From the NCBI GenBank assembly GCA_964569845.1, contig CAZMUQ010000001.1, forward strand, positions 3,994 to 67,993: a stretch of DNA of 64,000 nucleotides, read 5' to 3'. Positions 4,242 through 26,708 of this stretch are shown here, piece by piece; the first letter of the stretch is position 1, and each line of letters begins with the position of its first letter. Under the pieces are notes generated by a model. That model ran no database searches. It worked only from the letters and a program-made list of their open reading frames with translations, and had not been told where the DNA came from. The translations under genes and the position numbers were made by a program. The DNA is from an uncultured Candidatus Bathyarchaeia archaeon. Its GTDB lineage: Archaea; Thermoproteota; Bathyarchaeia; Hecatellales; Hecatellaceae.

Positions 4242-5288
4242 ATGGATAAAATTACCCTTGCTCATGGTGCTGGCGGAAGCATAATGCAAAAACTCATTAA
4301 AGAATATATCTTGAAAATCCTTGGTGGAAGCAATTTTGAGGTTCCTTTAGAAGCTTTAGATGATTCTGCTGTTGTTGATGGAGTAGTCTTAAAGAGCGAT
4401 TCTCACACAGTTAAACCATTATTCTTTCCTGGAGGGGATATTGGAAGATTAGCTATTAGTGGAACTGTTAATGATATTGCTGTTATGGGTGCTGAACCTA
4501 TAGCTTTAGCTGCAGGATTTATTTTGGAGGAGGGTTTTCCAATATCAGATTTTAAGAAAATTCTTGAAAGTATGAAGGAAACATGTAAAGAAGCTGGTGT
4601 TTATGTTGTTACAGGGGATACAAAAGTTTTAGAGAAGGGTTCTCTTGATAAGTTTATCATAAATACTTCTGGTATTGGAAGAAGAACAAAGCTTTTAGAT
4701 AAAAATTTTGAGGAAGTCAAGAAATACCGTAAAATAAGTTCACGCTGGCTTTTAGATTCAAATCTGCGTGATGGTGATAAAATAATCGTTAGTGGAACTA
4801 TCGGGGATCATGGTTTAGCCATCCTATCTTTTAGGGAGGGTTATAGCTTCAGTAATAAAATTGTTTCTGATGTTGCTCCATTAAATAAGGTTATAATGAA
4901 AATTTTAGAAGTTGGTGGTATTGTAAGCATGAAAGACCCAACAAGAGGGGGCCTTGCAAATGCATTAAATGAGTGGAGTGAAAAATCTAGAGTTGGAATT
5001 CTCGTATATGAGGAGCAGATACCTATACGTGAAGATGTACGTTCAGCATGTGAAATGCTTGGCATAGACCCATTAGAAGTTGGGAATGAAGGAAAAATTA
5101 TTATAGGAGTTGTAAAGGAGAAGGCTGAAGAAATTTTAGAGGTATTAAGAAAAACGAAGGAGGGAAAAGATGCTCAAATTATTGGTGAAGTTAGAAAAGA
5201 TTTTGAGGGAGTTGTACTTGAAACTGTTGTTGGTGGGAAAAGAATAATTCCTCCACCTGTAGGAGATCCTGTTCCAAGGATTTGTTAA
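4242..5288 (+). CDS. hypE: [NiFe]-hydrogenase maturation factor HypE (PurM-like, carboxamido dehydratase)
   Basis: The N-terminus reads MDKITLAHGAGGSIMQKLI. The protein has the PurM/AIR-synthase-like fold and the diagnostic C-terminal PRIC motif (…PVPRIC*). Confidence 0.9.
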   Translation: MDKITLAHGAGGSIMQKLIKEYILKILGGSNFEVPLEALDDSAVVDGVVLKSDSHTVKPLFFPGGDIGRLAISGTVNDIAVMGAEPIALAAGFILEEGFPISDFKKILESMKETCKEAGVYVVTGDTKVLEKGSLDKFIINTSGIGRRTKLLDKNFEEVKKYRKISSRWLLDSNLRDGDKIIVSGTIGDHGLAILSFREGYSFSNKIVSDVAPLNKVIMKILEVGGIVSMKDPTRGGLANALNEWSEKSRVGILVYEEQIPIREDVRSACEMLGIDPLEVGNEGKIIIGVVKEKAEEILEVLRKTKEGKDAQIIGEVRKDFEGVVLETVVGGKRIIPPPVGDPVPRIC

Positions 5289-5309: not shown

Positions 5310-6344
5310 CTAAGAGTAATGTTTTTTCCTTCCATATCTAAATTGAATATTACATGACCCCTCAATAGAAACCATGCAAGGTCCAACAGGTTTTTCTGGG
5401 GTACAGACCCTGCCAAAAAGTGGGCAATCCTCAGGATCTATTATTCCCCGCAGGATTTCACCACATCTGCAACCTCTAGTTTCTTTAAATGTTTCTTCCT
5501 TCAATATATCTAACTCATCTTCAAACTTTTTTCTTGCATCATATTTTTCAAACTTTTTTCTTAAAATCATACCTGACCCTTTTATGATGGGAAACCCACG
5601 CCAAGCAATATCAAATGGCTTAAAAACTTCATCCATAACTTTTAAAGCTTTAGGGTTTCCTTCATACCTAACAGACCTTGTATATTCATTTTCAACTTTA
5701 GCTTCACCATTTTTAATTTGTTTTGCAAGCATATAGACCGCTAAAAGCATATCTAAGGGTTCAAAGCCCGCAATAACTTGGGGAAGATGGTAAACTTTTG
5801 AAATTTCTTCATAAGGTTTAACACCGATTATTGTACTTACATGCCCTGGCTCAATAAGACCGTCAATTTTGATTTCTCCCATGCTAAGTAAAGCATGAAG
5901 AGCAGGTGGAATGTATCTATGGCAACTTAAAATTGAGAAGTTTTCTGGTGGTTCTTTAAGTATTGTTGCTGCTGTTGATGGTGCTGTTGTTTCAAAACCA
6001 ACAGCCATAAAAACAACATCTTTTTCCTTATTTTCTAAAGCTATTTTAACAGCATCTTCAATACTGTAAACGACTCTAACATCACAACCTTCAGCACGTT
6101 GAGCTAGAAGTGAACCTTTTAATGTTGGAGCTTTTGCAACATCTCCAAATGTTGCAATAATTTTGCCAGATTTAGCTAATACTATAGCCTCAGTAAACTC
6201 TTTTTCTGTTGTAACACAAACAGGGCATCCAGGTCCTTGCCTAACTTCAACTCCACAATCTTTAAGGAGATTATCTAAGCCGTAACGGATAATGGTATCT
6301 TGATGGGTTCCGCATACATGCATTATTCTAATGTTAAGCTGCAT
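5310..6344 (-). CDS. hypD: [NiFe]-hydrogenase maturation factor HypD
   Basis: Conserved motifs present are MHVCGTHQ (CGxH), GPGCPVCV and C-terminal cysteine motifs (CRCGEILRG…CPLFG). Confidence 0.9.
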   Translation of the reverse strand: MQLNIRIMHVCGTHQDTIIRYGLDNLLKDCGVEVRQGPGCPVCVTTEKEFTEAIVLAKSGKIIATFGDVAKAPTLKGSLLAQRAEGCDVRVVYSIEDAVKIALENKEKDVVFMAVGFETTAPSTAATILKEPPENFSILSCHRYIPPALHALLSMGEIKIDGLIEPGHVSTIIGVKPYEEISKVYHLPQVIAGFEPLDMLLAVYMLAKQIKNGEAKVENEYTRSVRYEGNPKALKVMDEVFKPFDIAWRGFPIIKGSGMILRKKFEKYDARKKFEDELDILKEETFKETRGCRCGEILRGIIDPEDCPLFGRVCTPEKPVGPCMVSIEGSCNIQFRYGRKKHYS

Positions 6345-6408: not shown

Positions 6409-6780
6409 TTACACCACCACTTTCATACTTTTAATGTTGCACTCTCTACCCTTAACAATTTTTACCTCTTTACCACATCTTGGGCAACTAAGAACTGGTA
6501 GAAGAAAGTGGTAAAGGTCCATATTTTTATGTTTAATTTCACCTTTATACCCGCAATTTTCACATTCTACTTCTACTTCTTCCTCTTCAATATGGAGTCT
6601 TGAACCTTCCATGATTGTTCCTTCAGTAAGCATTTCATAGTAAAATTTGATTTGCTCAATTCCTAAGCATGCAAGTTTACCTATAACAAGATGAACCTCT
6701 GAAACTTTTCTTGCATTATGTTTTTTTGCTTCTTCAAGTAAAAAATCTACAATCTGCTTTGTAACGTAATATTCATGCAA
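6409..6780 (-). CDS. hypA: hydrogenase nickel-incorporation protein HypA
   Basis: The N-terminus is MHEY…, and the zinc site has two CxxC motifs (CENCG…CPRCG). The 123-aa length is typical. Confidence 0.85.
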   Translation of the reverse strand: MHEYYVTKQIVDFLLEEAKKHNARKVSEVHLVIGKLACLGIEQIKFYYEMLTEGTIMEGSRLHIEEEEVEVECENCGYKGEIKHKNMDLYHFLLPVLSCPRCGKEVKIVKGRECNIKSMKVVV

Positions 6781-6791
6781 TTTCTATCCCG

Positions 6792-7460
6792 TTAAAGCTC
6801 TAAACACTTGATAACTTCATCTATGCCTAAACCAGTTTTACAGCTTGTTTCCACAACTTTAACCTTAGGATTTATGGATTTTGCATCTTTAACAATTTTT
6901 TTAACATCTACACCCATAATTTCTGCTAGGTCAATTTTATTTACCACAATAATGTCAGCTTCAAGAAATGTTAATGGATGTTTAATAATGACATGCTCTC
7001 CTTCAGTTACACTTACAACTACAACTCTTTTTTCAACTCCAAGCTTAAAATCAGAAGGACAAATAAGGTTTCCAACATTCTCAATAAATAAAACATTAAC
7101 ATTTTTAAGATCTATTTTCTCTATAGCCTTTCTTACAATATTTGCATCTAGATGGCATTCTTTACCAGTATTTATCTGTATAACTTTAACTCCATATTTG
7201 CTAATTCTTTCAGCATCTATAGTTGTTGCTAAATCTCCATTAATAACTGCTATTGAATATTTTCCATTTAAAATCTTAACAATATTCTCTATGAGTGAGG
7301 TTTTGCCTGAACCAACTGAACCCATAATATCAAAAGCTCTAACACCATTCTCCAAAAAAATTCTTCTATTTTCCTCAGCAAGCTTATTATTTCTTCTTAT
7401 CAAGTCAAACTCAAAATCTACGGTTTTCTCCTCCTCAATTTTTAAAATATCCTTACTCAA
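6792..7460 (-). CDS. hypB: hydrogenase nickel-incorporation GTPase HypB
   Basis: It has a P-loop GSVGSGKTSL and other G3E-family GTPase motifs (ENVGNLICP, NKIDL). The 222-aa length fits. Confidence 0.9.
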   Translation of the reverse strand: MSKDILKIEEEKTVDFEFDLIRRNNKLAEENRRIFLENGVRAFDIMGSVGSGKTSLIENIVKILNGKYSIAVINGDLATTIDAERISKYGVKVIQINTGKECHLDANIVRKAIEKIDLKNVNVLFIENVGNLICPSDFKLGVEKRVVVVSVTEGEHVIIKHPLTFLEADIIVVNKIDLAEIMGVDVKKIVKDAKSINPKVKVVETSCKTGLGIDEVIKCLEL

Positions 7461-7479: not shown

Positions 7480-8523
7480 TTAAAAATACTTTTTAAGTGC
7501 TTTTGCTAAATCCTCCGGTATAATACTTATAACTGGCTGTTTAACAAGGAAAGGTAGAAACCATGAATCATTTATATAAAAACTTTTTATTCCAGGTCTT
7601 GCTACAATACTTAAATTTACCCAGAAATATGGAGTTTCCCTATCAAGGGGCCCTGAATTTAACACAAACTGGAAGCTTGAGAAGTTTTTATCATTGTAAA
7701 ACCTTAAAATTTTGCATATTCCCTCAGCTATATCCCTAAAATCTTCCCTGTTAAGTTCAGTAAAACTTGATTTCTTCCTTATAATACCTAGAACCTCATA
7801 ATTTGAAATGGGAGTAAAGGGAGCTAACCATTCCACATTCCCAGTTTTACCAATGTATCTTTCCCCTTTTTCCTTTTCAGTAGCAATAATTGTCTCCCAG
7901 AAATTTGATGAGAACCTTTTATAGTATTCTTCGCTTGCATCTAAAATATCCTTTAAATTTCCAAGCGGAATTTCTGTTAACATAGCTTGCATGTGTGGAT
8001 GAACAATGCTTGAACCTGCTGAAGGTAGGTATTGTAATCCAGCGGTAATAAACCTTATAGATGATACACTTTTAACTTTTTCAGTAAACATTTTTATGGC
8101 TAGAAAGCCATCAACAAAAATATTCGGGGTAAATTCATCTAGATTTAAGTAATGTTTTTTTGTTAGGACAACCACAACACTAAACTCGCAGTAAGGAGCT
8201 ATATTTGGAAAAAGGTAGGCTTCTCCAACACTAATTCTTCCTTCAGGAAGAATATTCTCTAAAAATTTTGGTGTAAACTTTTCAACTTTACCAGGACAGA
8301 AAAAACATTTTTCTTCTGATTCTTTTGCAAGCTTTTCAAGAGAATCCTTATCTGCCATGTAAATCATTTTTTCTATTGGTCTTCCTGATTCTTTTAATAC
8401 GAGGCATCCTATTTTTCCAGTTAAAGGATTTATTCTATACTCTATAATTTTTGGTTCTACCTCAAAATTTTTTAGGGGGTTAAGTATTTTTGCCTCTTTT
8501 GTAAAACTTTCAAACCTTAACAT
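7480..8523 (-). CDS. galactose-1-phosphate uridylyltransferase-like (GalT branch of the HIT superfamily) nucleotidyltransferase
   Basis: The zinc motif CFFCPG and the active-site HPHMQ (HxHxQ) motif are both present. The 347-aa length fits GalT-family enzymes. The gene sits between hypB and hypC on the same strand. Confidence 0.7.
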   Translation of the reverse strand: MLRFESFTKEAKILNPLKNFEVEPKIIEYRINPLTGKIGCLVLKESGRPIEKMIYMADKDSLEKLAKESEEKCFFCPGKVEKFTPKFLENILPEGRISVGEAYLFPNIAPYCEFSVVVVLTKKHYLNLDEFTPNIFVDGFLAIKMFTEKVKSVSSIRFITAGLQYLPSAGSSIVHPHMQAMLTEIPLGNLKDILDASEEYYKRFSSNFWETIIATEKEKGERYIGKTGNVEWLAPFTPISNYEVLGIIRKKSSFTELNREDFRDIAEGICKILRFYNDKNFSSFQFVLNSGPLDRETPYFWVNLSIVARPGIKSFYINDSWFLPFLVKQPVISIIPEDLAKALKKYF

Positions 8524-8558: not shown

Positions 8559-8780
8559 TTATTCCTCAGCCTCTAATATCTCACTCCAAATCTTAAGAGT
8601 TTCTTTAGCAGTTTCCTCATCTAAAACTTGGATTGCAAATCCAGCATGAACAATTACATAATCACCTATTTTAGCATCAACAAGCGAAATATTAACCTCC
8701 CTAACTACACCTCCACCAAAATCAACTACTGCATGGTCTCCTTCAACTTTTAAAACCTTCGCAGGGATAGCTAAACACAA
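8559..8780 (-). CDS. hypC: hydrogenase assembly chaperone HypC
   Basis: The N-terminus reads MCLAIPAKV, with the essential Cys2. The 73-aa length is typical. Confidence 0.9.
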   Translation of the reverse strand: MCLAIPAKVLKVEGDHAVVDFGGGVVREVNISLVDAKIGDYVIVHAGFAIQVLDEETAKETLKIWSEILEAEE

Positions 8781-8851: not shown

Positions 8852-11119
8852 TTAACCTAAAAAGCTAGCTATAAAAGCTTGTCCTAATGAAATTCCCCCA
8901 TCTCCAGCTGGAACTTTACTGTTAACTACAAATTTAAACCCTCTTTTTTCAACAATCTTCTTAATTGTTAAAGTTATATGTTTATTGTATGCTACTCCAC
9001 CAGAGAAACCTATAATCCTAACTCCCAATTCTTCAGCTTTCTCAATTGCTGCTTGAGCTAAACTTTTACTAATGTATTCTTGAGCAGAGTAAGCAAGATC
9101 CTTAGCAGAATATTTTCCAAGGTTTTCAAAAATTTCTAAAACAATATTTTCTGTGTTAATAATGTTACCATCTATTTTAGGTTCAACTTTAAGTATATCC
9201 TTACCGTTTAAAGCGTAAGATTCAAGCTTTATTGCAGGTTCTCCTTCATAGGTTCGTTCATAACATACTCCAAGTAATGCTGCAATAGCATCTAAAACTC
9301 TACCGCAACTTGTGGTCCATGTAAATTTTCCAGTTTTAGCCTGCCTTATTATTATCTCTGCTTCTGCCTTTCCAAACGGCAAAAAACTTGATTTTGAGTA
9401 AATCCAATCCTCAATTTTTGAATGTTCTCTTAAAATTCCTACAACCATTCTTAATGGGTAAAGTGTTGCCTTATCCCCTCCAATCATTGGTTGTTCTTGA
9501 AGATGAGTTAAACGTTTAATTTCACCCTCAACCCAATAAAGAATTTCACCACCCCATGCTTTTCCATCTAAACCATAACCAAAACCATCGCAAACAATGC
9601 CAATAGCTTCATCTAAACCATACTCTGCTACAAGCGAACCTAGATGAGCATAATGATGTTGAATAGGAAAAACTTCGCATCCAAACTTTTCAGCAAGCTT
9701 ACTAGCTAAACTTGTTGTATTAAATTTTGGATGCAAATCACATGCAATATATTGAACTTTTACATTTGTTAAGTTTAGAAGATGAGTTACAGCATGCTCA
9801 AGGTAGCTTAAGGTTTCAACATTTTTAACATCACCAATATATTGAGTTAAGAAGGCTTTATCTTCATTTAATATGCATCCTGTAACATTTTCTTCAGCAC
9901 CTAAAGCTAAAACAGGTTTTTTAACCCTATTTTTTAAAAATATTGGAGCTGGAGCGTAACCCCTAGATCTACGAATTATTGTAGGAATTTTATCATGAAC
10001 CCTAACAACGGAGTCATCACATCTTTGAGCAATCCTTCTATTGTGAAGGAGAAAGTAGTCAACTGTTGAACCCAGTCTTCTATATGCTTCCTCATTATCT
10101 ACAACTATAGGTTCACTTGGAGGATTTGCGCTTGTCATGATAAATGCTGGTTCTTTAACATTATCAAAAAGCATATAATGAAGACCTGTATAGGGTAACA
10201 TAACACCAATATTATGGAGTTTTGGAGCAATTTCCTCAGAAAGGTAGTAATTATCGCTTTTTTCAAGTAAAACTATTGGTCTAATGTAGGATGTTAAAAG
10301 TTTTTCTTCCTCCTTGCTAACTTTAGCAAAAGTTTTCACAGCTTCAAGACTTTTAGCCATCACTGCAAACGGTTTTTGTGCTCGATGTTTAACTTTTCTA
10401 AGTCTAATTATAGGCTCAGATTTTAAGGTTGAAGTTGCAATATGAAAACCTCCATTACCTTTAATAGCAACAATAAATCCTTCTTCTACAAGCTTTCCAG
10501 CTTCCCTAATAGGATCTTTGCACTCAACATTTTCCTTATCTTTTGTTGTTAAATAAACTCTTGGTCCACATGCATGGCATGCTATTGTTTGAGCATGAAA
10601 GCGACGGTTTAAAGGGTTAACATACTCTTCTTTACATTTTTCACACATCGGAAAATCTACCATTGTAGTGTTTTCTCTATCGTAGGGTAATTTTTCAATC
10701 ACTGTATATCTGGGCCCGCAATCTGTACATGTGATAAAAAAATAATCATATCTCCTATTCTTTGAATCTTTTAATTCCTCTAAACATTTACTGCAGATCG
10801 ATATGTCTGGCGGGATAACCAATCCTGAGAATCTTTTTTCCTCTAAACTTCTATATATCCTGAACTCTTTAAACTCGCCTTTATCTCTAGAAAATTTTAC
10901 TTTTAACTTGTAAATTTGTGCTAATGGAGGTTTTTCGCTTCTTATTAATTTTATAAAATGCTTAATGTTTTTTTTATCACCTTCAACAATAATTTCAACA
11001 GTTGCATCTCCACAATTACGTACAAAACCCTTAAGATTCTCTTTTACAGCAGTTCTATAGATAAATGGTCTAAATCCAACACCTTGCACAATACCAGTAA
11101 CAGTTATTTCTGCACGCAA
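8852..11119 (-). CDS. hypF: carbamoyltransferase HypF
   Basis: 755 aa. It has an N-terminal acylphosphatase domain (VQGVGFRPFIYR), two zinc-finger CxxC…CxxC pairs, a YrdC-like domain and a C-terminal Kae1/carbamoyltransferase domain. Confidence 0.9.
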   Translation of the reverse strand: MRAEITVTGIVQGVGFRPFIYRTAVKENLKGFVRNCGDATVEIIVEGDKKNIKHFIKLIRSEKPPLAQIYKLKVKFSRDKGEFKEFRIYRSLEEKRFSGLVIPPDISICSKCLEELKDSKNRRYDYFFITCTDCGPRYTVIEKLPYDRENTTMVDFPMCEKCKEEYVNPLNRRFHAQTIACHACGPRVYLTTKDKENVECKDPIREAGKLVEEGFIVAIKGNGGFHIATSTLKSEPIIRLRKVKHRAQKPFAVMAKSLEAVKTFAKVSKEEEKLLTSYIRPIVLLEKSDNYYLSEEIAPKLHNIGVMLPYTGLHYMLFDNVKEPAFIMTSANPPSEPIVVDNEEAYRRLGSTVDYFLLHNRRIAQRCDDSVVRVHDKIPTIIRRSRGYAPAPIFLKNRVKKPVLALGAEENVTGCILNEDKAFLTQYIGDVKNVETLSYLEHAVTHLLNLTNVKVQYIACDLHPKFNTTSLASKLAEKFGCEVFPIQHHYAHLGSLVAEYGLDEAIGIVCDGFGYGLDGKAWGGEILYWVEGEIKRLTHLQEQPMIGGDKATLYPLRMVVGILREHSKIEDWIYSKSSFLPFGKAEAEIIIRQAKTGKFTWTTSCGRVLDAIAALLGVCYERTYEGEPAIKLESYALNGKDILKVEPKIDGNIINTENIVLEIFENLGKYSAKDLAYSAQEYISKSLAQAAIEKAEELGVRIIGFSGGVAYNKHITLTIKKIVEKRGFKFVVNSKVPAGDGGISLGQAFIASFLG

Positions 11120-11702: not shown

Positions 11703-12092
11703 ATGTATAATGAAAAATATAAGAATTGTTTAAACATTTTTCCACAACTGATAAATACAAGTTTTAGGTTTTTCTTGATGGGTGAAGTTGTGCAAAAAAG
11801 TATGCTGGATGCAACATTAACTCCCTTCTATTGTAGATTAGCTCTTACCCTATGCCAGCATGCAAGGGAACTTCTTTATGATGATAGAAAGTACCAGTCA
11901 GCTTCAAATATTTGCAAATTTATATCAACACTTTGTAGGAGAAATGGCTATCCTCAATGTGTTGAAGAATCTAAGCTTTGTGAAAAAGTTTCTGAGTTAT
12001 GTAGGTCTCCAGAAAAAGTTAATGAAGCACGGCGTATTTGTGAAGTAGCAAGGAGAAGATGCCCTAAAAGTTTTAGTATAAAGGCTGGTTGA
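11703..12092 (+). CDS. cysteine-rich protein with periodic Cx6C repeats (hypothetical)
   Basis: Cysteine pairs recur in the sequence: C..LTLC, ICKFISTLC, CRRNGYPQC, CVEESKLC, CEKVSELC, C(x12)C and CEVARRRC. The track start at 11703 is only 21 nt from the divergent methyltransferase start. An in-frame ATG at 11778 (MGEVVQ…, 104 aa) is a more plausible start. The stop lies 6 nt before the PAC2 gene. Confidence 0.45.
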   Translation: MYNEKYKNCLNIFPQLINTSFRFFLMGEVVQKSMLDATLTPFYCRLALTLCQHARELLYDDRKYQSASNICKFISTLCRRNGYPQCVEESKLCEKVSELCRSPEKVNEARRICEVARRRCPKSFSIKAG

Positions 12093-17139: not shown

Positions 17140-18255
17140 ATGGTTAAAGGGTTCAAAATTCTCCTAACAGTTTTAATAGCTACCTTTATCCTAATTTCTA
17201 CTCCTATTCTGCATACTCTATCTCAAACTCAAAATATGTATGAACCTCAAAAATTAACTTTTGAGGTTTATCCTGATGGTTTTGTTTTTATTGATTATAC
17301 AGTAAAAGTGGACCCTACACTGTCAACTGTAAATGTTACATGTTTTGGGGTAAACTATGAAAACCTTATAGTTCTAGATGAAAATGAGACTCCATTAGAT
17401 TATGTTCAAGTGGACGGTAATATAACTGTATATAGTTTAGGTTCAAGTATAGTTCATATATTTTACCTTACAGGAGATTTAACAAAGAAATCTGGAAAGA
17501 TGTGGATTTTTAGTGTTGAATCACCAATTACTAACACAATCATTCTTCCAGCTGAAGCTGTAATAATAAGTTTGAATGATGTTCCGGTTGATATTAAAAC
17601 TCTGGATGATGGAAGAAAAATGCTTACGATGCCTAAAGGCCCCATTGAAATATCCTATATGATTGAAGTTACAGGAACAAAAGATTATGCATTACTTCGT
17701 ATTAAGGAGGCTGAATCAGCAGTAAAAAAAGCTGAGGACGAGGGAAGGGTAATAGGTTTAGATGAAGCAAAGCAACTTTTAGATGAAGCAAAAAACGAGT
17801 ATGAAAAAGGCAACTATCTTGAAGCTGGAAAGATAGCAGAAAAAGCTAAGGAAGCTGCAGATAAAGCAGCTGCACCAGTACAATTAGGAACAATACTAAC
17901 TTATTTTGCTACTTTTATCATACTTCTAATTTTAGCTGGAATCTTAGCCTACAAGTTTCTGCTTAAAAAAGGTGGATCTAAAAGTGGACATGTTAAGGAA
18001 GTTTTTGCTGTAAACTTAGATAAGATTTTTAGGCAAAATCCCCAGCTAAGATTAGAGGATAAGGAGGTTTTAGAATTTATAGCTAATAGTGGTGGAGAAG
18101 TTTTTGAAGCTGAAATCAGGGAGAAATTTAAACTTCCAAAAACAACAGTTTGGAGAATGATTCAAAGACTTAAAAAAGAAGGAATTATTGAAGTATTAAA
18201 AATCGGCGGCCAAAACCTTATACGTGTAAAGCAAAAATATCGATTACAAGGTTAA
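17140..18255 (+). CDS. two-transmembrane membrane protein with an N-terminal extracellular beta-rich domain and a C-terminal cytoplasmic winged-helix (MarR/TrmB-like) domain
   Basis: Residues 5-25 form a hydrophobic anchor. A roughly 220-aa domain carrying N-glycosylation-like sequons follows, then an Ala/Lys/Glu-rich coiled coil and a second transmembrane helix ([23 protein letters not shown]). The C-terminal segment [48 protein letters not shown] resembles a winged helix-turn-helix. Confidence 0.6.
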
Positions 18256-18668
18256 TTCTTTTCTTCTTTTTTTAAACTTAAAATTCTGTATGCAAGCCAA
18301 GCTGCATTTTCAGCATTATTTATACCTACACATGCAACAGGAACACCTCTAGGCATTTGGACTATGGAAAGTAGCGCGTCAAGCCCTCCAAGCTGAACAT
18401 TTAAAGGTACCCCTATAACAGGTTTATCTGTTCTTGATGCTATAAAACCAGGTAAATGTGCTGAAAGCCCTGCTATACCTATAAAAACATCAGCATTACA
18501 GCTTTCAATATATTCTTCAAGTTCTTTAGGATTTCTATGGGCAGATAAAACTTTAACTTCGTAGGTTATTCCAACTTTTTCTAGTACCTTTATAGCTTCC
18601 TCAGCCACACTTTTATCTCTTTCACTTCCAAGGATGATTGCAACTTTACCCTTCAATTTAACTTTCAC
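18252..18668 (-). CDS. purE: N5-carboxyaminoimidazole ribonucleotide mutase / AIR carboxylase catalytic subunit
   Basis: The 138-aa PurE fold is present, with [10 protein letters not shown] and the SAHR motif (KVLSAHRNP). Confidence 0.9.
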
Positions 18669-20147
18669 CTATGCCTCTAAAATAATTTTACCTCTTTTAG
18701 GTATCCACTCTATTGTTTTACCTATAAGCTTCTTTTTTAACCTATACTTGTATACCCCTCTTACAATGTTTGCTTGTTCTATCCTTTTCTCTAAGAGTTC
18801 TTTTGAACCTATATCACTCCTATGAAAAGTCCCCCAACCATCTTTAAGCCAAACATAAGGTATACATTTTTCAACAATATCTCCAGCCTCAATAATGCTT
18901 TCACCTTTACCAAAAATTTCAACAAGTCTAGAACCACCTGAAATCATTTCACCATTGCTTTTTAAGTCTATTGAGCCATAGTAAACTTTACATCCCTTCT
19001 TCTTTATAGCCTCCTCATCAATATATACAGGGTGACCCTTAGCTAACTCTCTTTCTTCAGGATAACCTTTTGGTGCTATACATTTTACAACTGTAGCTAC
19101 GTTTTCAAACTTAAGTTTAATTTTATTTAGCTTCTCATCGATTATAGCTTCACAAATTTCAACCATATCTGTTTCCATTATTGGAAGAACATTTACAGCT
19201 TCAGGATCACCAAATCTACTATAAAATTCTATTATTGTTGGACCCCAGCTGGCAGTACACATCATTTGCCCTGAAATAACACCCTTATACTTTTCACCCA
19301 CCTCTTTTTCCACGGCTTTAACGCAAGCTTCAACAATTTTAGTTGATGCTTCATATTCCTCCTTAGTAATAAATGGTAAAAGTTTACCCTTTCCTGCTAT
19401 AGAACCCATACCTCCAGTTTCAGGGCCAATATCCATTTCAAACGCATTTTTATTATCCTGAACAAGGGGTAGAGGCTTAATTGTTCTACCATCAGTAAAA
19501 GCTTGGAGAGTATATTCCGGACCTTCAACTCTCTCTTCAACTAAAATTCTATCCTCAATATCTGTAAAACCATGCATGTAAACTTCATCTATAGCCTTAA
19601 CATGTTTTTCCTTAACATGTGTTTTTTCAGACCTGAGATAAGCTTGAAGGTCAGCTATAACTTTAACTCCTTTACCTCCTGCCTGCCTAGCAGGTTTTAA
19701 AGCTACACTTTCAGCATACTCTTTAATATATGAGACAGCCTCATCAACACTTTTAAAAGCCTTAAATCTAAGCCTTCCTGGAACTTTATACTTCCACATA
19801 AGTCTTCTCATGAAAGCTTTGGACATCTCAATTTCAGCTGGCTTACGCTTAGCTCCAATACACGGTATTCCTACTTCTTCAAGCTTATCAGCAACCCCAT
19901 GAAATAAAGGTTCTTCAGGACCTACAAAAACAAAGTCAACCTTAAATTTCTTAGCTGCCTCAACAACAAATTCAGGGTTTTTCGAGTTTCCAAGTGAAAT
20001 ATCTCCACCTGTTTTTTTACAAAGATTATAGATACCTGGATTGTTTAAACTCATAGCTGCATAAAGTTTAGGTTCATATGAACTTCTGGATATAGCATCA
20101 GCTATCGCATGTTCTCGAGCACCTTCACCTACAAGTAAAATACGCAA
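18669..20147 (-). CDS. purD: phosphoribosylamine-glycine ligase (GAR synthetase)
   Basis: It has the ATP-grasp fold, the N-terminal MRILLVGEGAREHAIA segment and the GVISGQMMCT region. The 492-aa length matches the long archaeal form. Confidence 0.9.
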   Translation of the reverse strand: MRILLVGEGAREHAIADAISRSSYEPKLYAAMSLNNPGIYNLCKKTGGDISLGNSKNPEFVVEAAKKFKVDFVFVGPEEPLFHGVADKLEEVGIPCIGAKRKPAEIEMSKAFMRRLMWKYKVPGRLRFKAFKSVDEAVSYIKEYAESVALKPARQAGGKGVKVIADLQAYLRSEKTHVKEKHVKAIDEVYMHGFTDIEDRILVEERVEGPEYTLQAFTDGRTIKPLPLVQDNKNAFEMDIGPETGGMGSIAGKGKLLPFITKEEYEASTKIVEACVKAVEKEVGEKYKGVISGQMMCTASWGPTIIEFYSRFGDPEAVNVLPIMETDMVEICEAIIDEKLNKIKLKFENVATVVKCIAPKGYPEERELAKGHPVYIDEEAIKKKGCKVYYGSIDLKSNGEMISGGSRLVEIFGKGESIIEAGDIVEKCIPYVWLKDGWGTFHRSDIGSKELLEKRIEQANIVRGVYKYRLKKKLIGKTIEWIPKRGKIILEA

Positions 20148-20154
20148 ATATTTC

Positions 20155-20709
20155 TCACCTTTTTAATACTTTATCTTTTTCTAAGAGAAGTTCAAGGTAG
20201 GTTTTATCCTCCAATTTTTTATCATGCAAATTTAACTTTAAAAGCACCCTTTTTACATTTTCTACTACTTTTTTACGTTCATCTTCATCTTTAGCAAACC
20301 CCTCAATTTCAACAAAACTTCCAAGATTTTCAACATTATCTAAGTTAATTTTTAAATTCTCAAGCTTGAAACTTTTTCTTATCTTTTTAACTAAGTAAAC
20401 AGGTTTAAAATCAAGTTTTTCTAGGATAAGCCTGATTACATTGAAATCTTCAACCTTAACTTCTAATTCTTCCCTAGTTTTTGCTTGGCTATTTAATCTG
20501 CAACCCTTATAAGTTAAAAAACATTTACCATTTGACCTTCTAATTCTTAAGGCTTCATCTGTTGTTACAAAATTTTTATGTGGAGCATTAAAGTATAAAT
20601 CCTCTTGGACTCCATACTCTACTTCATCTGCTCCAAGTTTTTTAAGGTCTTCTTCAACTTTAGCTAAATTCTCAACTTTAATCTTAACCTCAACCTCAAA
20701 CTTAACCAA
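20155..20709 (-). CDS. CYTH-domain protein (triphosphate tunnel metalloenzyme; class IV adenylate cyclase/thiamine-triphosphatase-like)
   Basis: The N-terminal EVEVKIKV segment is the ExExK signature. The 184-aa length fits. It is embedded in the pur operon between purD and the purF paralog. Confidence 0.75.
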   Translation of the reverse strand: MVKFEVEVKIKVENLAKVEEDLKKLGADEVEYGVQEDLYFNAPHKNFVTTDEALRIRRSNGKCFLTYKGCRLNSQAKTREELEVKVEDFNVIRLILEKLDFKPVYLVKKIRKSFKLENLKINLDNVENLGSFVEIEGFAKDEDERKKVVENVKRVLLKLNLHDKKLEDKTYLELLLEKDKVLKR

Positions 20710-20728
20710 TAATTATGCACCATAAAGT

Positions 20729-22069
20729 CTAGCTTATGTTTAAATATTTTCCAGTAAAACATCCCAAACAAAGATTTTGTTTAGGTATTCCTATAGCTTT
20801 TATTAAACCTTTAAGACTTAACCAGTAAAACGTATCTGCACCAACAACCTTGCTGACTTCTTTAGCTGTTAAATTTGCAGCTATAAGTTCATCTTTTTCA
20901 GGTACATCAGTACCATAAGGACAGGAAGCTATAAGTCTTGGGCTTCCAATTCTTACATGAACTTCCTTAGCTCCAATACGGTTCCTCATTTGGTATACTG
21001 TATTTTTTGTTGTTGTCCCTCTAACGACACTATCATCTATAAGAATAACTCTTTTACCAGTAATTGCAGCTTTTATAGGGTTAAGCTTAAGCTGAACACC
21101 AACCATACGTTCAAATTCTGAAGGTTTTATTGCACTTCTAATTCTTCTACCTGTTTGAACAAAACCTAAACCTAGAGGTATTCTAGCCTTATTTGAATAT
21201 GCCATAGCAAAAGGTATTGCAGTTTCAGGAACACCTAAAACAATATCCATCTTAGTTGTAGAGTGTTCTTCTGCAAGTATTTCTCCTATTTTCATTCTAA
21301 CCTCATAAACACTTTTACCGTTTATTATGGAGTCAGGTCTAGCATAATAAACATATTCAAATGAGCAGTATTTAGGTTGAGGTTTAAAAACCTGTTTTCT
21401 TTCAATGCTGTAAGCATCAAAAAGATAAACTTCTCCAGGTTGAATGTCTCCTTTAAAATCTGCACCAATAACATCCATTACACAACTTTCTGATGCAATA
21501 ACCCCATAATCAAAACCAAAACTTCCAATTGTTAATGGTTTAACGCCAAACTTATCCCTAGCAACAACCATTTCACCTTTATTTGTTAATGCTATAATAC
21601 AGTATACACCTTTAACTTTATTCATAACATTAATCATAGCTTTTAAGGGGTCTTTAACCTCCATAAGCTTAATGGAGAAGAATTTAGCTAGAAATTCATC
21701 TTCATCTTCAGCGTTTAAACCCTCCTTAGTGGAAATTTCTTTCCAATTTAATATTCTCCCATCATAACATAAAGCAACATTCTCAGGCTCAGAAACAATT
21801 ATAGGTTGAACCTTTTCTACAGAATTCTTAGGAGTAGAAGAAACGCTTCCAATACTAACCCATCCATGAAGATTTTCAAAAATTTTTTCGTTTGAAAAAA
21901 CCTGGTCTACCATGCCAAAACCCTTATAAGATGATAAACCTTCCCCGTTGAAGGTTACTATTCCGCAATTTTCTTGACCTCTATGTTGAAGAGCTAATAA
22001 TGCATAATATGCAAACCTAGCCATTCGCCACTCTTTGCTAAATCCGTAAATTCCTACAATTCCACCCAA
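20729..22069 (-). CDS. amidophosphoribosyltransferase paralog lacking the N-terminal nucleophile cysteine (PurF-like)
   Basis: The N-terminus is (M)GGIVGIYG, where Gly replaces Cys1. The Ntn glutaminase-like domain, the PRTase motif VILIDDSVVRGTT and C-terminal Cys residues (CLGCFTGKY) are otherwise conserved. It begins at a TTG, 2 codons after the purF TGA stop and in the same frame. Confidence 0.8.
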   Translation of the reverse strand: MGGIVGIYGFSKEWRMARFAYYALLALQHRGQENCGIVTFNGEGLSSYKGFGMVDQVFSNEKIFENLHGWVSIGSVSSTPKNSVEKVQPIIVSEPENVALCYDGRILNWKEISTKEGLNAEDEDEFLAKFFSIKLMEVKDPLKAMINVMNKVKGVYCIIALTNKGEMVVARDKFGVKPLTIGSFGFDYGVIASESCVMDVIGADFKGDIQPGEVYLFDAYSIERKQVFKPQPKYCSFEYVYYARPDSIINGKSVYEVRMKIGEILAEEHSTTKMDIVLGVPETAIPFAMAYSNKARIPLGLGFVQTGRRIRSAIKPSEFERMVGVQLKLNPIKAAITGKRVILIDDSVVRGTTTKNTVYQMRNRIGAKEVHVRIGSPRLIASCPYGTDVPEKDELIAANLTAKEVSKVVGADTFYWLSLKGLIKAIGIPKQNLCLGCFTGKYLNIS

Positions 22070-22075
22070 AAATTC

Positions 22076-23506
22076 TCACCCGTTTTCAAATTCAATGTAT
22101 CTAGCCTTACTTGTTGGACATTTTTTCTTCATCCTATCTGCAATTTCCTGAGCTTTTGGTGTAGGGTATTCTCCTGTTAAGCATGCTAAACATAGCTTAT
22201 CTTTTCCCATACCTATAGCCTCTATAAGTCCATCTATTGTTTGATAACCCAAACTATCTGCTCCAATAATTTTGCATATTTCTTCAATTGAATGTCTAAA
22301 GGCTATAAGCTCTCCGTGAGTTGAAATATCTATACCATAAAAACATGGAGAAATTATTGGGGGGCAGGTAATTCTTACATGAACTTCCTTAGCTCCAGCC
22401 TTCTTAATCATGTGAACAATATTCCTTATTGTAGTCCCCCTAACAATACTATCATCAACTAATATAACTCGTTGACCTTTAAGAACAGATTTAAGGGGAT
22501 TAAGCTTAATTTTAACAGCATTTTCTCTGAGAGATTGTCTAGGCATAATAAAGGTTCTATGGATATACCTATTTTTTATTAAACCTTCAGCAACAGGAAG
22601 ACCACTATAGCGAGCTATTCCTTCAGCTGCAGGTCTTGAGGTATCTGGAACAGGAACAACAACATCAGCATCATTTTCATAAGTTTTTGCAAGATTTAAT
22701 CCAAGCTTAACTCTTACATCATAAACACTTATACCTTCAATTATAGAGTCAGGTCTGCTAAAATATACATATTCAAACATACAGTAAGCTTTTTCTTTAC
22801 GTTTAGCAAAACATTTTCTTTCAATTTTTCCATCTGAGATTAGTAAAGCTTCACCTGGTTGAACATCAGAAATCAAATTTCCGCCACACATATCTATTGC
22901 AACACTCTCAGAAGCCCCTACAAAACTTCCATCAATTTCTCCGTAACATAAAGGTTTAAAACCGTATGGATCTCTAAAAATAATGATTTCTCCTTTACCT
23001 GTTAAACATACAGCTGAGTATGCACCCTCAATAACTTTATCCATTTCTGAGAGTGCATCAAAGTAATCTTTTCTTTCCCTATATTCGCGTAATAAAACAT
23101 TTAATAGAACTTCTGCATCACATGTTGAGGTAAAGTATGCACCATTTTTCTTTAATTTTTCTCTAATCTCAACATAGTTAACTATTGTGCCATTATAAGA
23201 TAAAGCTACATTATCAAGATTAAATGGTTGAGCATCAGTTAAACTTGTACCTCCAGCAGTTGAATATCTTACATGTCCAATTCCAACTCTACCATTAAGC
23301 ATTGATATCTCAGTAAACGGTAAAGCTTCACTAACAAGTCCATAACCTTTTTTTAAAAATATTTTGTCGTCACCATTTGTAAGAGCAATACCTGCAGCTT
23401 CTTGACCTCTATGCTGTAAAGCCATAAGTCCATAGAATATTTTTGCAGCTACACTTTCTCCCGTTTTACCATATATTCCAATAACTCCGCATGATTCCCT
23501 GACCAA
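22076..23506 (-). CDS. purF: amidophosphoribosyltransferase (glutamine PRPP amidotransferase) with a short propeptide
   Basis: The N-terminus MVRESCGVIGIYG is a 5-aa propeptide before the catalytic Cys. It has the PRTase motif VILVDDSIVRGTT and the [4Fe-4S] Cys ligands (CLACLTGEYP). Confidence 0.9.
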   Translation of the reverse strand: MVRESCGVIGIYGKTGESVAAKIFYGLMALQHRGQEAAGIALTNGDDKIFLKKGYGLVSEALPFTEISMLNGRVGIGHVRYSTAGGTSLTDAQPFNLDNVALSYNGTIVNYVEIREKLKKNGAYFTSTCDAEVLLNVLLREYRERKDYFDALSEMDKVIEGAYSAVCLTGKGEIIIFRDPYGFKPLCYGEIDGSFVGASESVAIDMCGGNLISDVQPGEALLISDGKIERKCFAKRKEKAYCMFEYVYFSRPDSIIEGISVYDVRVKLGLNLAKTYENDADVVVPVPDTSRPAAEGIARYSGLPVAEGLIKNRYIHRTFIMPRQSLRENAVKIKLNPLKSVLKGQRVILVDDSIVRGTTIRNIVHMIKKAGAKEVHVRITCPPIISPCFYGIDISTHGELIAFRHSIEEICKIIGADSLGYQTIDGLIEAIGMGKDKLCLACLTGEYPTPKAQEIADRMKKKCPTSKARYIEFENG

Positions 23507-23508
23507 CC

Positions 23509-25671
23509 CTAGCTAACCTCCATAATTTTTGGTATTGATTCCTCCCAAATGCTTCTTAAAGCATTAACAGAACATTCCACTATTTTTTTATCAAGATTTT
23601 GTAGAATAAAATTGTCATTATCATAAACTTTACCTATAATAGCTGCGGATATTCCATTCTTGACAGCAAGATTGATAATTTCTTCAGCATTTTCAATTTT
23701 ATCTGTGGTTAAGATAACTCTTCCATATGATTCAGAAAAAATAAGTTCATCTAAACTTGAAATCTTTTTTGATGGAATTTTTTCAAGGTCTACCTTTACA
23801 CCTAAACCTCCATTTATGGCCATTAAGGCTAAAGCTATAGCTAAACCTCCTTTTGAGCAATCATGAGCAGCTGTGACAAGCCCCATTTTAATAGCATTTT
23901 TAACAACATTCAAAACTCCAGCCTCTTTTAATCCATCAGCTTTTGGAGGTTTACCCCCAGTTAACCCGTAAATCTCATGGTAGTATTCTGAGCCTCCAAG
24001 TTCAGGGTAAGTTTCACCCAAAATTAAAATAAAATCTCCATGATTTTTTAAGCCTATAGTGGTTATAGATTCAAGTTTTTCAATTAACCCAAGCATTACA
24101 ACAACAATTGAAGGTTTAACAGCAAATCCTGATTCCTCATCCTCATTATAAAAGCTAACATTACCTCCAACGCATGGAATATTAAGCATACGGCTCATAT
24201 AGGCTAAACCTTCAATTCCACGTTTAAATTGCCAAAAAATTTCAGGTTTCTCCGGGTTACCAAAATTACAACAATCAGTGTAGGCTAATGGTTCAGCTCC
24301 TACGCAAGCAACATTTCTCGCAGCTTCAGCAAGTGTACCTGCTGAACCATTAAATGGATCTAAATAACTGTGGCGGCTATTACAATCAGCTTTAACCGCT
24401 ATAGCTTTACCGGGAACTTCAGTAATCCTAATAACAGCAGCATCTGCTACACCAGGCTTAACTATAGTTCTTAATCCTACTTCATGGTCATATTGCTCAT
24501 AGATCCATCTTTTAGATGCTATGTTTGGTTTTGAGAGAAGTTTATAAACGATTTCTGAAAGGTTTTCTGGTGTTTTAGGTTTTTCGAAGTTTAAAACCTC
24601 TTTAGGGAAAAATTTTTGACTTTTTCTTCTACTTATTGGAGTTTCTGTTAAAAGTTTTGGAGGGATTTCTGCTACTACCTTGCCGTTAAACTTTACAATA
24701 AGTTTTTTATCTCCTATAACTTTCCCAATAATAGAGTATGGAATTTCATATTTCTTAAAAACTTCTAAAACGTTTTCCACTCCATTAGGGTCGACAGCGA
24801 GAATCATTCTTTCCTGTGACTCTGAAAGCATAAGTTCGTAAGCTGTCATACCTTCCTCTCTTACATGAACATTATCTAAGATTATTTCTGCACCTAAATC
24901 TCCCTTACTAGCCATTTCAGAAGTTGCGCAAGTTAACCCTCCTCCTCCAAGATCCTTCAAGCTATGCACATAACCTGTTTCTAAGGCTTCTAAAATAGCT
25001 TCAATAAGAAGTTTTTTTGTGAAAGGATCTCCGATTTGGACAGATGGTCTATCTTCTTCTGATTCTTCACCTATTGTTTTTGATGCAAATGTTACACCAT
25101 GAATTCCATCTCTGCCTGTTGCTCCTCCAACTAAGACTAAGATATCTCCTGGATTTGTAAATTTTGCAAGAATTATCTTATCTTTTTTTACAACACCGTA
25201 ACATGCAACATTAACAAGACAATTTGTTTTAAAGCTTTCATCAAATTCTACTTCTCCGCCTACTGTTGGAATACCTACACAATTTCCATAGTCACTTATA
25301 CCTTTAACCACGTACCTAAAAAGCCATTTAACATGCCCATTGTTCAGATTCCCAAATCTTAATGAATCTAGAAGTAAAATTGGACGCGCACCTGTTGCAA
25401 GTATATCTCTTATAATTCCTCCAATACCTGTTGCAGCACCATTGTATGGTTCTATAGCTGATGGATGATTATGGCTTTCAACTTTGAAGGCAATGGCATA
25501 ACCATCACCTATATCAACAATTCCTGAATCAAATCCTGGTCCCATAATAACTTTCGGAGATTTTGTTGGAAGTTTTTTAAGCACAGGTTTACTACTTTTA
25601 TATGAGCAGTGCTCAGACCACATTATATCAAACATTCCCCATTCAACATCAGTAGGTTCTCTACCAAGCAT
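23509..25671 (-). CDS. purL: phosphoribosylformylglycinamidine synthase II (FGAM synthase large subunit)
   Basis: 720 aa with duplicated PurM-like domains. The N-terminus reads EWGMFDIMWSEHCSYKSSK. Confidence 0.9.
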   Translation of the reverse strand: MLGREPTDVEWGMFDIMWSEHCSYKSSKPVLKKLPTKSPKVIMGPGFDSGIVDIGDGYAIAFKVESHNHPSAIEPYNGAATGIGGIIRDILATGARPILLLDSLRFGNLNNGHVKWLFRYVVKGISDYGNCVGIPTVGGEVEFDESFKTNCLVNVACYGVVKKDKIILAKFTNPGDILVLVGGATGRDGIHGVTFASKTIGEESEEDRPSVQIGDPFTKKLLIEAILEALETGYVHSLKDLGGGGLTCATSEMASKGDLGAEIILDNVHVREEGMTAYELMLSESQERMILAVDPNGVENVLEVFKKYEIPYSIIGKVIGDKKLIVKFNGKVVAEIPPKLLTETPISRRKSQKFFPKEVLNFEKPKTPENLSEIVYKLLSKPNIASKRWIYEQYDHEVGLRTIVKPGVADAAVIRITEVPGKAIAVKADCNSRHSYLDPFNGSAGTLAEAARNVACVGAEPLAYTDCCNFGNPEKPEIFWQFKRGIEGLAYMSRMLNIPCVGGNVSFYNEDEESGFAVKPSIVVVMLGLIEKLESITTIGLKNHGDFILILGETYPELGGSEYYHEIYGLTGGKPPKADGLKEAGVLNVVKNAIKMGLVTAAHDCSKGGLAIALALMAINGGLGVKVDLEKIPSKKISSLDELIFSESYGRVILTTDKIENAEEIINLAVKNGISAAIIGKVYDNDNFILQNLDKKIVECSVNALRSIWEESIPKIMEVS

Positions 25672-25737
25672 TTTTCTGATTATTTTAATTTCCCTTTTTG
25701 TTAAGTTTACTTTAACTGGTATTTTTCTTCCTATTTC

Positions 25738-26439
25738 TTAACACCTCAAAAAGTTAATCATAGATTTAAACATCAATAAACCATCTTCAGACATGTAAGG
25801 GCTAAGTATTCTTTCTGATGCTCTTTCAGGGTGAGGCATAAGTCCTACAACATTACCTTTCTCATTGCAAATTGATGCTATGTTATCTAGAGAACCATTA
25901 GGGTTTGCAGATAAGCTTGCTTTACCTTTCTCATCTACATACCTTAAAACAATTTGATTTTTTTCTTTCAGTTTTTTAAGGCCTGATTTACTGTTAAAGT
26001 ATCTTCCCTCCTTATGAGCTATAGGCATATGAAGAATTTTTCCTTCTGGTATAAGAGATGTAAATGCTGTATGGCTTCTTTCACATCTTAATGCAACCCA
26101 TTTACAAACAAATTTTAAATTGTTATTAATTAGAAGCGCACCAGGAAGCAGTTCTGCTTCAATAAGAATTTGAAAACCATTACAGATGCCAAGAATTGGT
26201 TTACCTTCCTCAGCCATTTTTTTAATTTCATCCATAGCTGGACTATGAGATGCGATAGCTCCAGCTCTTAAATAATCTCCATAAGAAAAACCACCTGGAA
26301 GGATAGCGGCATCATATCTACTATTCTTAAAAAATTTATGCCAAACAAGTTCTGCGGGTAAATCTAAAACATTCCTAAGTACATGGAAAACATCATAATC
26401 ACAATTTGACCCAGGAAACTGGATAACAGCTATTTTCAC
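25738..26439 (-). CDS. purQ: phosphoribosylformylglycinamidine synthase I (glutaminase subunit)
   Basis: It has a class I glutamine amidotransferase fold: MKIAVIQFPGSNCD, the catalytic Cys in GICNGFQ, and His/Glu in MPHPER. Confidence 0.9.
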   Translation of the reverse strand: MKIAVIQFPGSNCDYDVFHVLRNVLDLPAELVWHKFFKNSRYDAAILPGGFSYGDYLRAGAIASHSPAMDEIKKMAEEGKPILGICNGFQILIEAELLPGALLINNNLKFVCKWVALRCERSHTAFTSLIPEGKILHMPIAHKEGRYFNSKSGLKKLKEKNQIVLRYVDEKGKASLSANPNGSLDNIASICNEKGNVVGLMPHPERASERILSPYMSEDGLLMFKSMINFLRC

Positions 26440-26444
26440 TCTTT

Positions 26445-26708
26445 TTAATCACCTTTTTTAACATTAATTTTATAAGTGTGAACCACAGGATTGTATATCC
26501 TAAGCCTATTACACATATCAAAAACAGTTTTTTCAGCTTCTTTCCTATTTTTAGCTTCAATAAGAATCTTAAGATACTTCCCTGTTCTAACAGATTTGAT
26601 ATGCTCATACCCTCCCTTGATAATCAAATCCTTTTTTATTGTTTCTCCCTCTGGATCTCTTGCAGCAGGCTTATTTTCAATTATAACCTCTACAATAAAA
26701 TTTCTCAT
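26445..26708 (-). CDS. purS: FGAM synthase PurS subunit
   Basis: It is 87 aa and shows the PurS pattern (…VIIENKPAARDPEGETI…). It overlaps purC by 4 nt. Confidence 0.85.
   Translation of the reverse strand: MRNFIVEVIIENKPAARDPEGETIKKDLIIKGGYEHIKSVRTGKYLKILIEAKNRKEAEKTVFDMCNRLRIYNPVVHTYKINVKKGD

Follow-up and report, generated by a model that had tools for sequence, protein, structure and literature searches.

Among the [NiFe]-hydrogenase maturation (hyp) genes of an uncultured Candidatus Bathyarchaeia archaeon lies a gene for a GalT-like protein, and the question that it raises is whether the Hyp pathway has gained a seventh factor or whether an enzyme unrelated to hydrogenase has come to rest among the hyp genes. 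The window analyzed here is a stretch of 64,000 nucleotides (assembly GCA_964569845.1, contig CAZMUQ010000001.1, positions 3,994 to 67,993 of the forward strand), in which the gene, a HIT-superfamily open reading frame (ORF) with a predicted class I GalT/ADP-glucose phosphorylase fold, begins with ATG and encodes 347 amino acids (7480-8523, minus strand), with hypC as its upstream neighbor on the same strand across a gap of 35 nt and hypB as its downstream neighbor across 19 nt. An initial reading of the letters alone (the sequence-only reading) had correctly placed a GalT/HIT-type gene between hypC and hypB, both of which are identified by Pfam and NCBIfam models, and had offered two interpretations, a new maturation factor or an enzyme unrelated to hydrogenase, of which the second is favored by the unlinked orthologs described below and the first is not upheld. 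We are fairly confident that the gene encodes a relocated housekeeping zinc HIT enzyme of the GalT/ADP-glucose phosphorylase architecture and has no conserved part in the maturation of [NiFe]-hydrogenase. The main value of this result is a negative one, in that a candidate seventh Hyp factor can be set aside from sequence data alone, because the gene and the operon are both present in sister genomes, but apart from each other.

One genome per species (185,579 species) was scanned with a family motif taken from a 13-sequence alignment, which gave 80 loci with up to 10 kb on each side. A tblastn search with the HypA-F proteins of the window found hyp genes within 10 kb at only one of these species-level loci (L001), in a Bathyarchaeota metagenome-assembled genome (MAG) that encodes a GalT-like protein 79% identical to that of the window and that has the same gene order; these queries also recover E. 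coli hypA-F at E <= 1e-10 from an equally large database, which serves as a positive control. The conserved neighborhood with hyp genes that the sequence-only reading had proposed to look for was therefore not found, at one locus in 80 and with a sister MAG, described below, that keeps the gene and the operon apart. Orthologs at 61-65% identity, from three loci beyond the 80, are likewise not hyp-linked. Two unlinked orthologs (P0004, 64%, and P0007, 61%) lie upstream of the genes for EF-1alpha and ribosomal protein S10, and another (P0006, 61%) lies between adenylate kinase and GT4 glycosyltransferase genes. The sequence-only reading would have been undone by orthologs that are never hyp-linked in other genomes and that sit beside sugar-metabolism genes instead, and the first half of this holds outside the clade of proteins at least 79% identical to that of the window, though not inside it, while the second half holds only occasionally, with a GT4 glycosyltransferase, a DeoC aldolase, or a TrmB regulator as neighbor in some lineages and no neighbor common to the family.

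The reverse comparison, which starts from the hyp operons of sister genomes, is decisive. The closest non-identical HypB proteins (64-67% identity) lie in hypF-hypC-hypB-hypA-hypD operons with a convergent hypE, and in the sister Bathyarchaeia operons L098, L099, and L101 hypC directly adjoins hypB, with no GalT-like gene between them. These same operons adjoin the genes for the small and large [NiFe] hydrogenase subunits and for HycI, with hypF divergently adjacent to the subunit genes and the HycI protease gene nearby. One of the sister MAGs, GCA_964573765.1, carries its hyp operon (L099) on CAZNLG010000027 and a GalT-like ortholog of 61% identity on CAZNLG010000018. Its Hyp proteins are 64-77% identical to those of the window, and because the 61% identity of the GalT-like protein is comparable with that of HypB (64%) and HypA (66%), the comparison is consistent with vertical inheritance of both the operon and the GalT-like gene, followed by relocation.

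The hyp-linked relatives, found among looked-up homologs, are all 79-97% identical to the window protein and include contigs nearly identical to the window. Three of these loci (L094, L095, and L102) are syntenic with the window across the full +/-10 kb, including methyltransferase, PAC2, NfeD, and PurT-like genes, and because of this synteny the linked genomes amount to roughly one evolutionary observation; a further relative at 80% identity (L087) is on a 3.3-kb contig that shows only hypF-hypC-GalT-like-hypB. A neighbor-joining tree places the hyp-linked clade inside a set of unlinked Bathyarchaeia orthologs, with short branches and no long branch, and there is neither accelerated evolution nor a change of catalytic residues in the linked clade, which counts against co-option for maturation. 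In the orthologs at 61-65% identity (L081, L082, and L086), which were compared with positions 19935-20986 of L094, the gene lies just upstream of the EF-1alpha and S10 genes, and in the hyp-linked lineage (L094) about 9 kb separate the operon from the genes for ribosomal proteins S12 and S7, such that the GalT-like gene may originally have been located near a translation-factor cluster.

The identity of the protein was approached through its fold. An AlphaFold2 model, built with an alignment of 35 family members that extends down to 23% identity, has a predicted local distance difference test score (pLDDT) of 95 and a predicted template modeling score (pTM) of 0.93, and its single chain contains two HIT-like half-barrel domains in tandem, which is the arrangement of the GalT fold. 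A Foldseek search of the PDB with this model has as its top match the Arabidopsis ADP-glucose phosphorylase At5g18200 (E 1e-21, template modeling (TM) scores of 0.69/0.77), followed by the E. coli, Pyrobaculum, and human GalT structures. The family profile, when compared with PDB sequences, scores At5g18200 at 62.5 bits, E. coli GalT at 58, and Pyrobaculum GalT at 57, which places the three at nearly equal distance, although At5g18200 is the closest relative by both structure and sequence. With At5g18200 (PDB 1z84 and 2h39) the family has in common the CxxC pair, the distal histidine, the HxHxQ motif, and a C-terminal "PE" helix, but the identity is only 18-20%, and the C-terminal substrate loop GGFEIGTG of At5g18200 is replaced in the family by an R309...D319 pattern. 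The predicted fold, together with the zinc site and the HxHxQ motif described in the following paragraph, supports the placement of the protein in the GalT branch of HIT nucleotidyltransferases/phosphorylases that the sequence-only reading had proposed.

Both the Cys-x2-Cys and the HPHMQ motifs named in that reading were confirmed, and each aligns with the zinc or catalytic site of E. coli GalT. The pair Cys73-Phe-Phe-Cys76 (8296-8307, minus strand) is invariant in the family alignment and aligns with the CFLC of E. coli GalT, whose cysteines we take from published structures to be the zinc ligands C52 and C55, and it would provide two of four structural-zinc ligands. The predicted third ligand, His124 (8152-8154, minus strand), is at least 90% conserved and aligns with the histidine of SPDHS in E. 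coli GalT and of SPVHS in At5g18200. The segment His175-Pro-His177-Met-Gln179 (7987-8001, minus strand) aligns with H164-P-H166-G-Q168 of E. coli GalT and with HSHSQ of At5g18200, and by analogy with the roles of the aligned E. coli residues, which we likewise take from published GalT structures, His175 would be the fourth ligand of the zinc ion, His177 the nucleophile that accepts the nucleotidyl group, and Gln179 the residue that stabilizes the intermediate. Residues invariant across the 35 sequences are R30, C73, C76, N107, S172, H175, H177, R222, P336, and E337, with H124, Q179, R309, and D319 nearly so (Gln179, like His124, at least 90%). An hhalign comparison of the family with E. coli GalT (NC_000913.3) has 98% probability and pairs S172 with S161, N107 with N77, H124 with the distal zinc histidine, C73 and C76 with the CFLC cysteines, and H175-P-H177-x-Q179 with H164-P-H166-G-Q168. 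The GalT branch is characterized by HxHxQ followed by two hydrophobic residues, and its class I enzymes have a structural zinc site (bioRxiv 10.64898/2026.09.13.751320); residues 175-181 of the window protein read HPHMQAM, and the class I zinc pattern of Cys-x2-Cys, distal histidine, and first motif histidine appears by alignment to be present.

The similarity does not extend to the part of the protein that would bind the acceptor. The alignment by hhalign reaches only to GalT residue 285 and falls short of the hexose-binding C-terminal loop, in which the binding residues of E. coli GalT, from published structures, are K311, F312, V314, Y316, E317, and Q323. In a HMMER alignment, Asp319 of the family lies opposite GalT Lys311, and the G-Y-E...Q pattern is missing. 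By these alignments the nucleotide-binding and catalytic half of the protein is conserved but the acceptor half is not, and the acceptor pocket differs from that of GalT and from that of ADP-glucose phosphorylase.

When 5.8 billion proteins were searched with the single sequence, 72 relatives were returned, the best homolog with E 1e-223, which together with the pLDDT of the model puts the gene well outside what chance would produce. They come from Bathyarchaeota, Nitrososphaerota, Deltaproteobacteria, and Halodesulfurarchaeum, which are named "hypothetical protein" by NCBI and, automatically, "galactose-1-phosphate uridylyltransferase" by JGI. Among 1.84 billion cluster representatives, the family profile has 390 matches at E <= 1e-30 and 4197 at E <= 1e-3, and therefore the GalT-like genes form a family of their own, of moderate size, within a larger superfamily, where the family size of about 390 counts cluster representatives at 50% identity. 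The family is widespread, in archaea (Bathyarchaeia, Asgard archaea, Thermoplasmata, and haloarchaea) and in bacteria (Desulfobacterota and Spirochaetota). Pfam has no match for the window protein at E <= 0.01, and among the 35 aligned members there are weak matches to DUF4931_N (14 of 35) and DUF4921 (9 of 35), all below the gathering cut-offs. The DUF4931 and DUF4921 proteins are also uncharacterized members of the GalT clan, but the DUF4931 structure from Bacillus cereus (BCE0241, PDB 4qvu) is shorter, with 217 residues modeled, and matches clearly less well than GalT or ADP-glucose phosphorylase does; no literature on DUF4921 was found. What emerges is a sizeable GalT-fold family without a Pfam model and without a characterized member, and if its substrate were identified, the HIT/GalT enzymes would gain a further branch, which would also correct the automatic galactose-1-phosphate uridylyltransferase annotations.

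From the conserved residues and the known GalT mechanism, a reaction can be proposed in which His177 would attack the alpha-phosphate of a nucleoside-diphosphate-X donor, most likely a nucleoside diphosphate (NDP)-sugar, to form a covalent enzyme-nucleoside monophosphate (NMP) intermediate that would be stabilized by Gln179 and Ser172, after which the NMP would pass to phosphate or to a phosphorylated acceptor with ping-pong kinetics, while Cys73, Cys76, His124, and His175 would hold the structural zinc. The scattered contexts of the gene suggest that the family has a housekeeping role of its own in the metabolism of nucleotides or nucleotide sugars. In the narrow Bathyarchaeia lineage of the window, one recent rearrangement probably put the gene between hypC and hypB, and the same rearrangement would also have detached the hyp operon from the hydrogenase structural genes; co-transcription with hypC-hypB-hypA would then be a probable by-product of the landing site. 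Several points weigh against this interpretation. All known members of the clade (at least 79% identity) keep the tight position within the operon, which is compatible with a selective benefit from co-expression. Each MAG of the linked lineage has only one detected family copy, so that a test for a separate housekeeping paralog leaves room for a specialized second function. The NDP-sugar donor would be an extrapolation from the nearest solved structures, and the family context is heterogeneous (small HIT, enoyl-CoA hydratase, TrmB, SpoU methylase, and folP-cdaA) rather than specifically one of sugar metabolism.

The most durable of the alternatives, which we nevertheless consider unlikely, is that the enzyme is a phosphorylase of non-sugar nucleotide conjugates, either an ADP-sulfurylase (adenylylsulfate:phosphate adenylyltransferase, APAT) or an Ap4A phosphorylase. 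The HxHxQ branch includes groups with both of these activities (bioRxiv 10.64898/2026.09.13.751320), and many of the hosts are sulfate- or sulfur-respiring (Desulfobacterota, Thermodesulfobacteriota, Archaeoglobi, and Halodesulfurarchaeum). The acceptor pocket unlike that of GalT would also suit such an enzyme, as would the small HIT gene that is divergently adjacent in several haloarchaeal loci. However, there is no family-level similarity to Ap4A phosphorylase (Apa1/Apa2 type) in sequence or structure, with Apa2 absent from the matches of the profile search on PDB sequences, and the family is not restricted to sulfur specialists, with members in Bathyarchaeia, Spirochaetota, Intrasporangiaceae, and Haloferacaceae. 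The sequence comparisons were made without an APAT sequence; the APAT literature searched yielded no sequence-level information. In the haloarchaeal loci themselves, a small canonical HIT gene (PF01230, E 1e-27) lies divergently and immediately upstream of the GalT-like gene (L015, 6185-6631; L034, 3765-4187; L040, 4163-4684; L044, 262-681), such that two HIT-superfamily enzymes are encoded side by side.

It is decidedly improbable that the gene encodes a true Leloir UDP-glucose:galactose-1-phosphate uridylyltransferase, as the automatic JGI names of several family members would have it. The protein shares with such an enzyme the class I GalT fold, a zinc site, and an HxHxQ motif, and the zinc ligands, the nucleophilic histidine, the glutamine, and the Ser161 equivalent all align with class I GalT (E. 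coli 1hxp/1gup, P. aerophilum 6k5z, and human GALT). Against this, the two NCBIfam GalT models tested (TIGR00209 and NF008724) score the window protein far under their curated equivalog cut-offs, at 22.3 bits against 102.1 and 25.6 bits against 448, and NCBI annotates the family members as hypothetical proteins. Neither PF01087 nor PF02744 is matched by the window protein at the Pfam threshold given above, and PF01087 is matched by only 4 of the 35 family members, with a best E of 0.032. The hexose-binding loop is unalignable, with an aspartate opposite Lys311 and no GYE...Q, and there is no Leloir gene context among the frequent neighbors, since no galactokinase or epimerase occurs among the 25 commonest neighbor Pfam families (111 neighbors at 78 loci, a count that leaves rarer or unlinked genes outside it). 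The protein thus seems to work like a GalT-type enzyme, yet it fails the tests for a Leloir GalT.

Finally, it is highly improbable that the GalT-like enzyme was co-opted after landing as a lineage-specific accessory [NiFe]-hydrogenase maturation factor, whether to act by phosphorolysis or AMP transfer on stray carbamoyl-adenylate or on adenylylated intermediates of HypE, or to supply or clear nucleotides for HypF, HypE, or HypB, because a sister genome carries the gene and the operon on different contigs, and nothing beyond the position between hypC and hypB speaks for such a role, even though the chemistry of HypF and HypE involves adenylates, the short gaps on either side contain no terminator-like site, and the arrangement is kept in all relatives at 79-97% identity; the linkage is missing in 79 of the 80 species-level loci and in the nearest outgroup orthologs, the sister operons have the same architecture without the gene, and the linked genomes, syntenic as they are, count about once. 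Location in the hyp operon of the window lineage is the only likeness to HypA-F and to the accessory factors HypX, SlyD, and HupK, as the GalT-like protein has no homology to any Hyp protein, and a literature search for a link of GalT with hypC and hypB found nothing relevant. Were such a role true, the Hyp pathway would gain a nucleotidyl-transfer step of the HIT type, one that might handle adenylylated intermediates of HypF or HypE.

The hyp genes around the GalT-like gene are themselves well identified. On the minus strand, hypF encodes the carbamoyltransferase (8852-11119; TIGR00143, 867 bits against a cut-off of 466) and is followed by hypC (8559-8780; PF01455, 99 bits, and TIGR00074, 82 bits), the GalT-like gene, hypB (6792-7460; TIGR00073, 270 bits against a cut-off of 121), hypA (6409-6780; PF01155, 107 bits, and TIGR00100, 102 bits), and hypD (5310-6344; TIGR00075, 474 bits), while hypE (4242-5288, plus strand; TIGR02124, 398 bits) is convergent with hypD. 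All six Hyp proteins pass the Pfam and NCBIfam cut-offs with the sole exception of the HypA model NF001976, which HypA, although it passes TIGR00100, matches at 118 bits, below the cut-off of 146. The order hypF-hypC-?-hypB-hypA-hypD given by the sequence-only reading agrees with the ORF listing, but its count of seven minus-strand genes between 5310 and 11119 has to be corrected to six (hypD, hypA, hypB, the GalT-like gene, hypC, and hypF), and although there are six canonical hyp genes at the locus, as it had said, only five are inside that interval, with hypE outside it on the plus strand. Neither the hypC/GalT-like gap nor the GalT-like/hypB gap contains a terminator-like site in a bacterial-type scan, which weighs little for an archaeon, and the promoter part of the same kind of scan is equally uninformative for an archaeal host; because the gaps are small and free of such sites, a single transcription unit from hypC through the GalT-like gene and hypB to hypA is plausible. 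A hairpin in the hypF-hypC gap is no better than shuffled sequence (z = -0.64).

Elsewhere in the family, clustering of all ORFs within 7 kb of the GalT-like gene found no universal neighbor across the 80 loci, and the recurrent neighbors are confined to lineages. In a Pfam census of the 111 immediate neighbors at 78 loci, each family is limited to four loci at most, and the 25 most frequent include no Hyp family. An enoyl-CoA hydratase gene lies directly downstream at only three Desulfobacterota loci, the adjacent small HIT gene is limited to haloarchaea, genomes like that of Halodesulfurarchaeum have SpoU methylase, MptE-like, and Pterin_bind neighbors, and in another Bathyarchaeia lineage a DeoC aldolase gene lies 4 nt downstream of the GalT-like gene. 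In Thermoplasmata (L018, L026, L032, and L043), a radical-SAM gene for a protein of about 525 amino acids with an N-terminal HMPTM zinc ribbon (PF23545) is followed by an ORF with a TrmB-family match and then by the GalT-like gene; the intervening ORF at L073 differs from this TrmB-type ORF, and in two Thermodesulfobacteriota loci (L009 and L012) the same radical-SAM cluster lies just downstream of the GalT-like gene. In Spirochaetota/Leptospirales (L065, L068-L072, and L074), folP (Pterin_bind), cdaA (with the DAC domain of c-di-AMP cyclases), ybbR, and a 135-amino acid ORF lie upstream and co-directional, with patatin-like and apolipoprotein N-acyltransferase genes downstream on the same strand at most of these loci and opposite-strand ORFs in between at some.

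A pterin, folate, or methanopterin link, which the nearby Pterin_bind, MptE-like, and HMPTM radical-SAM genes might suggest, was considered and rejected for the family as a whole, as each of these neighbors occurs in one or two lineages only, the Spirochaetota folP is part of a folP-cdaA-ybbR block, and the radical-SAM neighbor resembles MJ0619, which we take to have been reassigned to tetraether lipid synthesis. A search for domain fusions found one only, the 515-amino acid protein P0188, which has a C-terminal GNAT acetyltransferase domain (PF00583, E 7e-8) and, as a single case, is a possible hint of amino-sugar nucleotide metabolism; long ORFs at L075 and L076 contain no additional Pfam domain. 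On the Desulfobacteraceae contig DQXI01000062.1, two inverted copies of the family gene lie about 8 kb apart (L076, 2768-3787 and 10952-11971; L079 is the same contig).

In the window lineage, the hyp operon stands apart from any hydrogenase structural gene and sits between a small methyltransferase gene and a PurT-like ATP-grasp gene. No [NiFe] large-subunit motif was found anywhere in the 64-kb window, nor were tRNA genes found there. The window overall is rich in nucleotide-metabolism genes, with a purine-biosynthesis cluster (18252-27439, minus strand, and 30121-31737) that includes purE, purD, purL, purQ, and purC along with two purF-like amidophosphoribosyltransferase genes in tandem, and with a CTP synthase gene further on. 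Beyond hypF, a cysteine-rich ORF of 129 amino acids without a Pfam match (11703-12092, plus strand) has an unannotated ORF of 100-105 amino acids at the corresponding position in the syntenic relatives L094, L095, and L102.

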